Assembly (NCBI RefSeq): GCF_032062105.1
Contig: NW_026929586.1
Location: 186,001 to 250,000 of the forward strand
Direction of reading: 5' to 3'
From: Saccostrea cucullata
Taxonomy: Eukaryota
Length of the DNA stretch: 64,000 nt
The translations under genes were made by a program, and so were the position numbers. The notes under the pieces were generated by a model that saw only the letters and a list, made by a program, of their open reading frames with translations, was not told the DNA's origin and ran no database searches. Positions 45,332-49,897 of this stretch are shown here, piece after piece. The number at the start of each line of letters is the position of its first letter. Position 1 is the stretch's first letter.

Positions 45332-48300
45332 TCATAACATGAAAATAAAGACACCGGAAACCACAAGGCACAATGATATAACAAAACAATATACATTTGA
45401 TACAGAGCTCAAGGCAATATTACTGAGAGGTCCAAGGCAACGCCGGTAGTAAAAACCGTCTTCAACGCGACACACGTGATCAGAGTCACAGCAATCATTT
45501 TCTTTTGCGCAGACTCCCCAAAATGGCGAGCAACATTGGTAATTGTCTCCGCATTTTAGATTTTCTACGCAGTGGTAGTCGGCGTAACATGGTTCATGTA
45601 TCCAGCTTTGCTGGCACCGGGCACTGGTTCCCACGTGCACCTGTTCACAATCTTGACTGCAGCATTCCGAACCCGACTCACAATTCTCATTTGTCCATTT
45701 GCACAACTGATGCGAACCTGATATAGAAAAAAAAATATAAATTAAAAAAGTTCTATAATGCGACTGCCTAAACTTAATTACATGTAATGAAAAAAGTAAA
45801 CAAAAAAGGGAGAAAGAAAATACTTTTTTTAATCTTGTACATACTGTACACTATAACATTTTGTATCAATGGATGTAAAACTAGGGAAAAAAATAAAAAA
45901 ATCAACCGAAATTTCTTTTCCTTAAAATTGACATTAAGAGTAAGCATTAAGAGTAAGCATGACTAGGAACATCTTAATATTGTTTGGATTAAATGCTTTC
46001 TATGATAACTACATTTTAAAATTTTTGATGTTTGAACTTACTTAAAATAGAGAAAAACACTTAGACACACATACACACATATTCGATATATCGGTACATG
46101 AAAAATACCCAGCAGTTTTTTGTCTATTAAAAGAAGTCTTAATGACCTGACGGTATAAATAGTGTTACGATGCAACATTATTGAGAAAATTGCTAATATT
46201 CGATGCCTTTGATATAATTATCTTTTTATGTGGGAAGTTCCTTAATTTCTGCTTAATTTAGTTCTCTAAATTAAGTCTTCGAGGCTTGCAAATTATGAGT
46301 AGGAAATAATTTGCATACTTCCTGACACAATGGCAACAACCAATTTAACGATCCACCGCACTACATTGAGAAAGTTGAACCTCGAAAAAAAATCGTTAAA
46401 ATGAGATGAAATTGGTGAAAGGGCTCGTGGGATGTTAAGATTGATTGATTGAAAGTTGTTTTACGTCACATTCAAAAATGTTTCACTCATATAGAGACGT
46501 CACCATATATACTAGTGAAGGGATCCAAATTTTGACCTTTACTCGGCACTCAGGGCCGTTGAGCAGTAGGGTATCTTTATCGTGTCAATGTCTTCATTTT
46601 TTTACGAAACAGAACTTTTATTGTCTTGTCCAGAGGAAAAGCTATGGTTAAATGGTATCACAGATAGTAATTTTGCAGTAGGAATTTTAAACCGTAGATT
46701 AACAATTGTATAAATGTATTCAACTAAGTGTATACTTGAGACACAAACAAAAATATTTGTATCTTATTACAAAACAGCTGTATAATCAAATAGTAAAAAA
46801 TATATATGATCTTCATCAAAACAAAGTAGGCCTATTCTACACGGATTATAATTATAGATCAGCAAAGAAGCAACCGCGGAAAGTTGATATCCAAAGAAAT
46901 AAAAAAAAAAAAAATATCGGATAATAATCATATGGTTCTTTGAATTCTCTAATAAATATAACACAAATACCTGGATTACAATGTAAGAAAATGCTGTTTT
47001 CATTTCTCTAGCAATTTACTCATGAAATATACAATTTTCTTAAGTTTTTAGAATTATACATGTTATTAGGTGTGTAGGATTGAAGTATATTGTTTGTCCT
47101 TAGTTTTGATTATAATGGTTTTCTTGCAAAATATGAAGTCATAAATTACTATGGTATTTCGTAAATTTCATTTCTATCGGTCTAGGTAAGAAGTCAATGC
47201 TTGAAATATATCCACAGAGTAGGATTATAAAAATGTACTGAGTTAGCCTTGATATGACCACCTACCGGTACATACATATGTTTCTAGAGAAATAGGTAAA
47301 AGAGTCCTTTGGAAGTTCTTTTTTCAATATGTGTCAAAATTATATTGATAAGAAATACCTCAAATCTGATTCAAATGCAATAATTATGTTTTAATATATC
47401 TTATTCAATTAACAATCACATTTAATATAATACAATATACTGCAATGCAAATAATCTGAAAAAAAATCCATTAAAGTAGAAAGTCAATTTAAACGACTTT
47501 TCTACGACTATGCAAATTACCAATAAGAGACGAAACATGTTTGCATTTCATGATCTCGGTCATCTGTCTACCGCATTGATAATTGAAGTCAAAATAATCA
47601 TTTGCAAACGTCAACTGTATAATGATCAATTTTCTGCGAATAGTTAGATATTACATTGTGATCATGAAATCGTAGGCTTGTTTCCATGGGCGTTTTACTG
47701 ACTTTGTTTAACGACACGTCTAAATTTGGAAAACAAATTGACCAGTCTGCAAGTTACGTAAACATTTGCATCTGCCGATTCATTTTTTTTACTGGACAGG
47801 TACTAGAAAGATTAAAAAAAGAATGTTATAGATTTTAACTAGAGGTATGAAGTAAAGGGTTTTTTCCCCTCAATTTATTATATAATATATAAATGTGTTG
47901 TTTCAGAAGCTATTTCATTACTTTTAAAAGGAAAACAGCTAAACCGGATTTTTTAAGCAAATGTTTATTGAGATTAAACTGCATACCATTTTACAAGATG
48001 ATATTGCCCTGCAAAAGGAGGGAAGCCAATCAAATAAAATATACCGTTCTACATCCCTCATTTAGCACATAAATTCTTCTTTTTAACATTTTCTTTTAAT
48101 TCAGAGACTCAGACATGTAATTTGAAAGTAAGAAAATAAGTGAAGTTGAGAAAGATTTTCCAACTTTCACCAACTTAAGTTCACTTATGACTTACAAATA
48201 TAAGTTATGAGCATAACCTGCTGAATAATCATAACAAGAGATAATTGTTACAAATTCACATGAGATCATTGATTTCCTTGTGTACATGCATTTACGCAAT

Positions 48301-49897
48301 AGCTAACACAATATTTGGATCAATACCTTACTAATCATGATAAGGAATTGCAAACACAGTCTTCGTGACATTTCAATAAATCAAATCACTGAAGGTTTTT
48401 TGTGTTTTAACTTTGTTATGTAAAGCTAGACGTTTGAACCCTTTACCACAAACAGAGTTAAGAATTGTTCGCTAACACGAAAGTGTATTTTTTTCAACAG
48501 CAAAATGTGCAGAGGGAAATGGCCAACAGAGTTTTGATTTCAATCCATTGCGTATTGGATCTACTTTTTGATAGAATTTTTTCATACGGATTGTTAGGCC
48601 ATTATTTACTCATTGAATTGTCAACATTTCCCCCTATTATGGCAAGGAGCACACCGCGGGTGTGACCGGTCGGCAGGGGATGTTCACTCTTCCATGGCAC
48701 GTGATCCCACCTCTGATGTTTTGGAGGTCTGTGTTTGCTCTGCTCCTATATTGTAATGTTTAATGGACTAAATTTGAGCTCGAATAAAGTTCGTTATCGC
48801 AACATATTTCATCTACATATACACGGTTTTTATACTACATTGTTTTATGCAATTAACACATGATGGAAACACTAATCTTTTTTTTTTTTGTTTCTATTGT
48901 GCAATGAACACCTGTTGGAAACTCTAAATTTTGTACATTTTATGCTTTATAATACACATTATTTGGGTTTACAAATAAGTGATTACTAAAATTTTGATTT
49001 GGAAGTCTTGAAAATTAAAATCTTCCAAGTTGTCTTTGTGTATCTTTTTTTTTATTTAAAAGGTGCTGTCAATCAAATTTATTTTGGGTCATATTTGTTT
49101 TCAGTCTTTACTGCCAATTGTGACGATGTATTCTATATACTATTACATTTTACAACATCCTAATATACGATAATTCGATATTTAACATATATGTATATCG
49201 AACATAGATAATTATATAAACATTTATTTATCGTGAATCGTGTTTCCAATCAATCATAGCGTTATTAACTATATATATAATTTCATTTTTTCAGAATTAT
49301 ATGATTTAAAGCTATATTGTTAAATGGTGTTTTAAATTTTCATCGTTTTTGGCGAAAGTGTTCAGAGTGTTGCTGTCAATTTAATAACAAAGGAACACAA
49401 TTATGAATATTCTGAAAATTATTTTACGCAGCATATTCTAAGGTACTTCTTTCCACATTTTTTCCATCATGCAAATCAATTAAGTATAATTCCTTTTTAA
49501 AATACTTTTTATGTTATCTCCTTTAGCGCCATACAAGGAAACACAATTACTGTAGCGCCATGTTTTGTTTAAAAGTCAAAAGAACTTACATGTATATTTC
49601 TCTTTTATAGCAATACTAATACTGTATCTTTTTTTCTCTTTTATAACACCTTTTTCGCAGACAGAGTGTCGAAAACTGTTAACTTTTCATGATTAATTCT
49701 TGAGCAAAAATTTAAAACTTTAAAGGTAATAAGTATAGAAATAAGATTAGGATCACAAACAAAATATGTGATAGCGAAAATTTGTTTTCATAACATTTGA
49801 AAAAAAAATACATCTTACCAGATATAAATAAAGAAAGTGTAACCGCAAGGAAAAGCAGATTGGTGTGTCTTTTTCTATTACTCTTGTTAAATTCCAT
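45332..49897 (-). CDS. Cysteine-rich, probably GPI-anchored protein with tandem knottin (ICK)-like modules, ~154 aa, 2 coding exons
   Basis: Exon 49819-49897 (MEFNKSNRKRHTNLLFLAVTLSLFIS, G|gtaag, phase 1) splices to 45332-45717 (tatcag|GT). Sixteen Cys are arranged as C-X6-C-X5-CC-X3-C-X10-C, C-X5-C-X5-C-X5-C and C-X6-C-X5-CC-X5-C-X10-C. The hydrophobic C-terminus VYCFVISLCLVVSGVFIFML* has no cytoplasmic tail. Confidence 0.78.
46438..46590 (-). mobile_element. SINE 3' fragment
   Basis: tttcactcatatagagacgtcacca..ggtatctttatcgtg and the (GATT) tail match the SINE at 10471-10742. Confidence 0.6.
48643..48812 (+). mobile_element. Penelope-like 3' tail copy
   Basis: aaggagcacaccgcgggtgtgaccggtcggcaggggatgttcactct..cccacctctgatgttttggaggtc. 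Confidence 0.78.

Follow-up and report, generated by a model that had tools for sequence, protein, structure and literature searches.

Tandem knottins of bivalves (mCRP-I), endogenous proteins with an inhibitor cystine knot (ICK; OCLP1), and prototoxins tethered by glycosylphosphatidylinositol (GPI; lynx) are each known separately. Here we describe a gene on the reverse strand of a 64,000-nucleotide stretch of the bivalve Saccostrea cucullata (contig NW_026929586.1, positions 186,001 to 250,000; hereafter the window, whose numbering we use) that encodes three cysteine modules followed by a hydrophobic tail. It is a real gene, for which we give a corrected first exon, and it belongs to an uncharacterized family present in three classes of molluscs.

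The available part of the report on Mytilus mCRP-I (Gualandi et al., 2023; PMC10138031) describes, as in the window gene, several C-C-CC-C-C arrays in one bivalve exon after a signal peptide, and the toxin neighbors of its predicted knottins (GXIA, psalmotoxin, and ceratotoxin) are the same as those of the window protein. CRP-I peptides are, according to the same text, secreted and cationic, with a hypervariable mature part, a conserved signal and propeptide, and a dibasic site, and they are encoded by genes and pseudogenes, about 50 in number, showing presence/absence variation. In contrast, the window family is anchored, mostly acidic, conserved over three classes, without a propeptide, represented by two copies here, and equipped with a four-cysteine middle module. 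Nor does the CRP-I array, C(X3-6)C(X1-7)CC(X3-4)C(X3-5)C, describe modules 1 and 3 of the window protein, in which the last loop has 10 residues.

Tandem ICKs are also found in DkTx, Hi1a, and xibalbin-3, which the accessible text of PMC6262176 treats as SCREPs (proteins that are secreted and carry cysteine-rich repeats), and single modules superpose. These are, however, soluble two-module venom peptides with neither an anchor nor a middle hairpin, and for xibalbin-3 the whole-chain root-mean-square deviation (rmsd) is 8.2 Å. The cysteine framework of modules 1 and 3 is that of framework VI/VII conotoxins and scorpion calcins, and the spacing of module 1 is calcin-like (maurocalcin, E 0.01), but the likeness demonstrated is one of fold. 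Conotoxins of this framework and calcins are single-domain, propeptide-bearing venom peptides that evolve fast, as venom knottins do, and the O-superfamily layout of a signal, a propeptide, and a single toxin differs from that of the window protein, with three modules, an anchor, and no propeptide.

Ly6/lynx proteins and engineered tethered toxins, as far as the sources at hand cover them, share with the window protein a signal peptide, a small disulfide-rich toxin-like domain, a GPI signal, and an endogenous character. Lynx proteins are GPI-anchored modulators with the three-finger LU fold and proven action on channels, whereas the window family would use a knottin and its modulation of a channel is our proposal. 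Honeybee OCLP1 (omega-conotoxin-like protein 1) is an endogenous, non-venom ICK with a validated channel-inhibitor function, but it is a single short ICK, and the part of PMC5705965 available to us mentions no GPI anchor; ICKs of non-venomous arthropods are treated in PMC11288129, likewise available in part. Finally, draxin, Dickkopf, colipase, and prokineticin resemble the window protein in their head-to-tail disulfide-directed hairpin modules (10.1101/485722, in its available text), and module 2 fits at 0.8 Å, yet they have a secreted five-disulfide, two-module fold with other packing and no sequence match to the window family. Within the main texts that we searched, a scope that leaves aside supplements and most subscription papers, we found no account of this family or of any natural membrane-tethered ICK-hairpin-ICK protein; the available parts of 10.1101/485722 and PMC13311285 do not describe such a family, and the knottins that these searches brought up were soluble.

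Three cysteine modules and a predicted membrane anchor in one exon

The mature protein, its anchor signal, and the stop codon are all encoded by exon 2 (45332..45717, minus strand), an open frame of 127 residues that lies 3' of a polypyrimidine/AG acceptor at 45717, ends in TGA at 45334-45332, and is covered by contigs from runs X1, X2, X3, X4, and X20. It holds 16 cysteines. Module 1 (exon-2 residues 5-34; 45614..45703, minus strand) is a six-cysteine ICK with the spacing C-x6-C-x5-CC-x3-C-x10-C, module 2 (residues 36-61; 45533..45610, minus strand) is a four-cysteine knottin backbone without the I-IV pair (C-x5-C-x5-C-x5-C), and module 3 (residues 62-93; 45437..45532, minus strand) is again a six-cysteine ICK (C-x6-C-x5-CC-x5-C-x10-C). 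An 8-residue linker separates modules 1 and 2, modules 2 and 3 adjoin directly, and the hydrophobic tail comes last. An earlier, sequence-only reading of this DNA had described two C-C-CC-C-C modules around a four-cysteine module with a hydrophobic C-terminus, and both the spacing of the 16 cysteines and the tail bear this out. Across the six reading frames of the window, the ICK-type cysteine pattern occurs only twice, both times in exon 2, and it is absent from each of 30 mononucleotide shuffles.

In module 2, positions I and IV are occupied by other residues and cysteines II, III, V, and VI are retained. An ICK backbone that carries only these four cysteines is a disulfide-directed beta-hairpin, a definition for which the available part of 10.1101/485722 gives partial backing. 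Module 1 begins five residues into exon 2, leaving no propeptide, and signal cleavage is predicted just ahead of it; the sole dibasic pair sits within module 3.

The predicted GPI signal (45335..45433, minus strand) consists of a small-residue omega region (candidates N99, A101, and S104), a spacer, and a hydrophobic end at residues 108-127, with transfer predicted near residues 99-104. The whole exon-2 tail has 34 residues, about 20 of them hydrophobic, and lacks a charged cytoplasmic end; this layout is kept in Crassostrea virginica. Tails were counted in the 40 of 48 family sequences with a complete module 3: a hydrophobic stretch is present in 39 and its hydropathy is at least 2.0 in 33. 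A GPI rule of our own (a tail of up to 42 residues with small residues at omega and omega+2) was satisfied by 23 of the 40, including the window protein and its paralogue in the same genome, compared with 1.6% of 20,000 random read-through tails from the AT-rich window. Membrane tethering of the family is well supported, and by the same rule GPI anchoring of the window copy is likely. The 'GPI-type' C-terminus of the sequence-only reading therefore stands as a membrane anchor, whereas its GPI nature depends on our own rule.

The signal exons and a corrected gene model

Two exons could supply the signal peptide. The distal one (58382..58445, minus strand) has 21 codons plus 1 nt, and the proximal one (49819..49897, minus strand), which the sequence-only reading had taken as exon 1, has 26 codons plus 1 nt; both end in phase 1 at a GTAAGA donor, and the proximal exon joins exon 2 in phase to give a protein of 154 amino acids. 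The best 9-residue hydropathy is 3.9 for the distal exon versus 2.6 for the proximal one, and the N-terminus of the C. virginica protein aligns with them at scores of 30 versus 21.

Runs X1 and X2 come from a relative about 96-97% identical to the window in exon 2, and their status as RNA is putative. Contigs of both track exon 2 as far as 45725 and then continue for 174-175 non-matching letters, and they align to this point because the last eight letters of the distal exon are the same as those of the intron acceptor. In the one contig whose junction letters were read (X1), the first 30 loose letters match window positions 58390-58419 at 26 of 30 (4 mismatches) and the proximal exon at only 20 of 30 (10 mismatches). 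The readable junction, in the relative sampled by X1, joins exon 2 to the distal type of signal exon across a 12.7-kb intron, and because the loose end matches 58390-58419, the gene reaches to at least 58445, beyond the 45332..49897 first assigned to it. The proximal exon does exist, with its phase and donor, but the splice from 49819 to 45717 that had been set as a test beforehand is not the one seen in the only junction read. The gene model changes and the conclusion of an N-terminal signal peptide stands: a hydrophobic phase-1 exon is joined to exon 2 in X1, and either signal exon yields a signal peptide and the identical mature protein.

Homology between the two signal exons shows in 62 identical positions out of 90 nt, an upstream block is common to both (59239..59301 ahead of the distal exon and 50597..50656 ahead of the proximal one, neither assigned a strand; 76% over 63 nt), and similar acceptor-like sites lie ahead of them; a signal-exon cassette was therefore duplicated, the block being a trace of this event, and the proximal exon is the duplicate of the distal one and, as to its use, a candidate exon only. 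Each is single-copy in a DNA search, and tblastn found no degenerate second exon 2 between them. The acceptor-like sites, themselves homologous, are at 58637 and 50008 (minus strand), which places them 255 bases before the distal donor and 189 bases before the proximal one; an unseen non-coding first exon may precede both signal exons, which would make them internal cassettes.

Three further observations were not used as evidence. The bin containing the proximal exon (49728-49951) has zero cover in four of four runs at 88% likeness, at which the exon could be missed in a diverged relative that has 4 mismatches in 30 letters even in the distal exon; the start of an X4 contig coincides with the acceptor G (45718), the position expected if two alternative first exons diverge there, which is at most a weak hint; and only a handful of reads from the raw RNA runs X22 and X23, of unlabelled tissue, fall in exon 2, at a mean depth of 3.6 or less.

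In the distal exon, which has 4 extra bases, the counterpart of the proximal exon's start ATG lies in another frame and opens an upstream open reading frame of 23 codons (58393..58464, minus strand; weak -3 context) that runs across the signal start. This would imply either leaky scanning or an indel of the assembly or allele. In run X2, one contig (depth 15) skips 171 bases at 45229-45399 and has 4 other letters instead, with ends unlike splice sites and 30 letters on the short side; the skip would delete the hydrophobic tail, possibly as a secreted allele in the relative. High-copy interspersed repeats lie in and near the introns of the gene, at 46368-46591, 48580-48810, 52040-52260, and 59475-59830.

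A constrained family of molluscs

With the window protein as query, phmmer retrieved 44 representatives at E<=0.001 and 36 at 1e-10. All but one look real, the exception being P0039, an 803-aa repeat, and alignment A2 takes 32 of the 44, leaving out P0039 and partial or frameshifted hits. A word-index search with the single protein gave no match, which reflects its limited sensitivity since phmmer found these 44 relatives. Species names come with 9 of the 30 clusters that we examined out of 44 and, together with further records, amount to 15, all of them molluscs (bivalves, gastropods, and an octopus); clusters without a name may contain other phyla. The bivalve members are from C. virginica, Mactra, and Mytilus coruscus (partial), and the others from Nucella, Babylonia, Batillaria, Biomphalaria, Bulinus, Elysia, four Haliotis, Gigantopelta, and Octopus bimaculoides. 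An Atlas cluster has 57 members, with Mollusca as the commonest phylum. No longer fused forms (379-2000 aa) were seen among 3337 candidates, which is weak evidence.

In a tree, the window protein groups with that of C. virginica (support 99/95). The tree also hints at two old lineages that set the window protein apart from its paralogue, a split that we do not claim, given support values of just 86/85 to 94/86. The 1.17-Gb genome of S. cucullata has at least two copies, one of them a paralogue 42% identical and of the same layout (L002:1492-1857, corresponding to G000:C8113, about 518260-518620, plus strand), with all 16 cysteines and a GPI-like tail. A possible 36-nt phase-1 mini-exon lies at L002:1256-1291, and in the 20 kb upstream the signal exon of the paralogue could not be pinned down among eight chance-level candidates.

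Constraint falls on the mature part. All 12 cysteines of modules 1 and 3 are invariant in 32 of 32 cores, which were chosen by pattern, and in the unselected alignment A2 6 of the 12 are invariant and 6 are present at >=90%. Several other positions are nearly invariant among the 32 cores: N9 (30), S20 (32), G29 (32), R33 (31), W66 (31), Y90 (31), and L94 (32). Modules 1 and 2 are joined by a linker of 8 residues with no dibasic site in 32/32 members. Mean pairwise identity outside the cysteines is 38%, and that of the window core is 62% with C. virginica, 51% with Mactra, 46% with Elysia, 41% with Biomphalaria, and 40% with Octopus, while signal peptides vary freely across the family. The four runs contribute 12 variants in the core, 8 synonymous and 4 non-synonymous (pN/pS 0.11, p 3e-4, from small counts), and the mature core is under purifying selection. 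Seven Haliotis members (P0035, P0078-P0081, P0091, and P0092) have a Ser/Thr/Ala-rich insert of 50-70 residues and variable length between the signal and module 1, form a long branch in the tree, and carry a positive net charge (+3 to +7); the Haliotis lineage may have altered its role.

This pattern, with a conserved mature domain, low copy number, an acidic core, and no propeptide, is the reverse of that seen in toxins or in CRP-I. The label 'conotoxin-like' given by the sequence-only reading fits the cysteine framework and fails here, the mature part being conserved, the signal variable, pN/pS about 0.11, and the copies two. The same features weaken its suggestion of a defence protein. A toxin or antimicrobial knottin, released from the cell surface in the manner of an mCRP-I with a tether, would be in keeping with the bivalve tandem arrays of mussel mCRP-I, which the accessible part of PMC10138031 proposes as defence peptides, and with the one X2 contig that lacks the tail-coding stretch; yet hypervariability, gene expansion, a propeptide, and dibasic cleavage sites are all missing from an acidic family under strong purifying selection, and we consider this very unlikely.

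Database names of the members are 'uncharacterized', 'hypothetical', or automatic 'Granulins' or 'WAP' labels, and the protein is assigned to no well-characterized family, an outcome on which the sequence-only reading depended. Granulins, an automatic UniRef/Atlas label, have 12 cysteines with four CC doublets; here there are three CC doublets among 16 cysteines, and none of 34 members matches Pfam Granulin. The LU domain of Ly6/uPAR and lynx is a ten-cysteine three-finger domain, which the 16-cysteine three-module pattern does not resemble, and none of the 34 matches an LU profile at E<=1. The same is true of the WAP, EB, and EGF profiles (0/34 at E<=1). Atlas EB rows scoring 0.78-0.80 are leads only, Foldseek gives weak EGF-type rows of low probability, and one of the 34 members, not the window protein, matches UPF0506 (PF11703; E 0.024). 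The fold lists contain no granulin or WAP structure, an absence that excludes neither and was not used as evidence.

Predicted fold, possible partners, and surroundings of the gene

The AlphaFold model, computed with 61 input sequences, has a predicted local distance difference test score (pLDDT) of 92 and a predicted template modeling score (pTM) of 0.78, and one secondary-structure pattern recurs three times. In superpositions with VIA-align, modules 1 and 3 match solved ICKs, including the C-terminal beta-hairpin, with rmsd values of 1.0-2.4 Å over 27-38 residues (Z 2.6-3.6). Module 1 superposes on omega-atracotoxin (Z 3.6, 2.4 Å, 34 residues), Aps III (Z 3.4, 1.7 Å, 33), and 5fzv (Z 2.6, 1.0 Å, 27), and module 3 on Hc3a (Z 2.8, 2.1 Å, 38) and psalmotoxin (Z 2.6, 1.8 Å, 36). 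Module 2 fits hainantoxin-I when taken from the whole model (Z 2.2, 1.1 Å, 30 residues); folded by itself (pLDDT 90), it fits conotoxin GXIA (Z 4.4, 0.9 Å, 27) and draxin (Z 3.5, 0.8 Å, 30). The chain is thus predicted to fold as ICK, two-disulfide hairpin, and ICK. The models agree with the knottin fold that had been proposed for modules 1 and 3, at about 1-2 Å albeit with low Z, and with a middle hairpin lacking the I-IV bond.

Sequence comparisons lean the same way. A family profile searched against the PDB gives 11 hits at E<=10, all of them short knottin peptides, which we take to be ICKs, with maurocalcin the best, and among 34 members there are weak Pfam matches to Toxin_12 (11), Toxin_29 (7), and Toxin_27 (6). 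The window protein alone matches no Pfam family and has two chance rows in a PDB sequence search.

Several match lists name proteins with quite different activities. The whole-chain Foldseek rows are led by draxin, at E 0.06, with colipase (E 0.09) and maurocalcin next, and module 2 lies on draxin and Dkk1 with an rmsd of 0.8 Å over 29-30 residues. The protein could be a surface ligand or co-receptor in developmental signaling, adhesion, or axon guidance whose stacked hairpin modules attach to a growth factor, or to the ectodomain of a receptor carried by another cell, as do the cysteine domains of draxin, Dickkopf, and prokineticin; deep conservation and low copy number would fit such a role equally well. 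The whole-chain fits are poor, however (about 8-9 Å for colipase, Dkk4, and MIT1, and 3.6 Å over 41 residues for draxin), so the packing of the modules differs, and none of 34 members matches the Dickkopf, prokineticin, or colipase Pfam families. We regard a signaling ligand as possible but rather unlikely.

Weak rows for the cellulose-binding CBM1 also appear in Foldseek. Together with the conserved aromatics W/F7, Y47, F/Y65, W66, F88, and Y90, they raise the prospect of a tethered chitin or glycan binder that fixes epithelium to the matrix of shell, radula, or beak, as for the tachystatin and CBM1 knottins. All named members are molluscs, which have chitinous hard parts in common. But the CBM1 rows are weak (E 0.4-2), some of the aromatics are possibly structural, and neither a matrix-protein name nor a paper came up for six LOC identifiers and five accessions, leaving this role improbable in our view. 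Even as a matrix or adhesion protein, this would still be a new mollusc-wide family, one that is mislabelled 'granulin' or 'WAP' in UniRef. Because modules superpose on SOTI-III, EETI-II, and carboxypeptidase inhibitor, a surface-bound protease inhibitor of the squash or carboxypeptidase-inhibitor type, shielding the epithelium, was considered as well. The conserved positions are scattered across modules 1 and 3 and do not center on a single reactive loop, and a mussel knottin, sCRP-I H1, although of another family, has no such activity according to the available part of PMC10138031; we give this explanation little chance.

The reading that we favor, tentatively and at somewhat less than an even chance, is of a GPI-tethered triple knottin that binds and tunes a conserved membrane protein of the mollusc itself, an ion channel or a receptor, and so acts like lynx on another fold. 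In this proposal the triple knottin would be rigid and displayed on the outside of the cell, where it would modulate its partner in cis. With a fixed 8-residue linker without dibasic sites after module 1, and no linker after module 2, the modules would stay uncut as one rigid unit, presenting a single fixed multivalent surface close to the membrane, and N9, S20, G29, R33, W66, and Y90 would maintain the fold and the partner surface. The tether would keep the protein locally concentrated, much as it does for engineered tethered toxins, and modest affinity would then be enough. That the family is strongly constrained and of low copy number speaks for a conserved partner in the host, and modulation in cis is suggested by analogy with lynx, with OCLP1, and with bivalent double-ICK toxins such as DkTx and Hi1a, whose tandem ICKs have high avidity for channels (PMC6262176, in part).

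A number of observations weigh against a GPI-tethered channel or receptor modulator. The core is acidic, with a charge of -8 in the window protein and a negative charge in 22/32 members, and many channel-binding ICK toxins are cationic. Seventeen of the 40 tails fail our GPI rule, Octopus P0025 has a polar stretch of 27 residues after its hydrophobic run, and several members with such a stretch, including that of Octopus, may be type I membrane proteins. Foldseek with the whole chain gave zero matches at E<=0.001, the three-module whole has no matching solved chain, and two-module chains mostly fit at about 8 Å. Every superposition has a Z under 5, as expected for units of 30 residues, and support for the knottin fold comes from the consistency of the knottin rows and from no single score; the I-IV, II-V, and III-VI pairing in modules 1 and 3 is implied by superposition only. 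The match lists also include protease inhibitors (SOTI-III, EETI-II), CBM1, draxin, Dickkopf, colipase, and ASIP, and a fold in common says nothing on function.

A slow-evolving, anchored triple knottin retained by oysters, clams, abalone, snails from land to sea, and octopus suggests a conserved host job, and members in the laboratory models Biomphalaria and Octopus make it testable. A bolder and unlikely reading makes this ancient, mollusc-wide protein, naturally tethered by GPI, an endogenous ion-channel modulator, a natural form of the engineered 'tethered toxin' and the equivalent of lynx among knottins; it would also be a candidate body-protein source of the ICK scaffold recruited by cone snails into conotoxins and by mussels into CRP-I. 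The family provides a concrete gene with which to ask about the origin of molluscan ICK toxins and about a lynx-like 'prototoxin' stage of the ICK fold, as for three-finger toxins. The fixed ICK-hairpin-ICK unit, a natural multivalent scaffold, may also interest knottin engineering.

The remainder of the window contains traces of several other genes. Methyltransferase exons lie at 643-1608 (plus strand; weak CMAS/Methyltransf_23 match), and long open frames at 3344-5346 (minus strand), which match TIR_2 weakly at their end and include a 274-aa frame without a family match, possibly represent a TIR-domain membrane protein. Several fibronectin type III repeats are encoded by a multi-exon gene spanning about 10100-22400 (minus strand), and the closest neighbor on the 3' side of the knottin gene, lying on the opposite strand, is a glycosyltransferase-like multi-exon gene at about 29400-36700 (plus strand; weak Glyco_transf_25 match). 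A DDE transposase fragment is found at 63385-63792 (minus strand).

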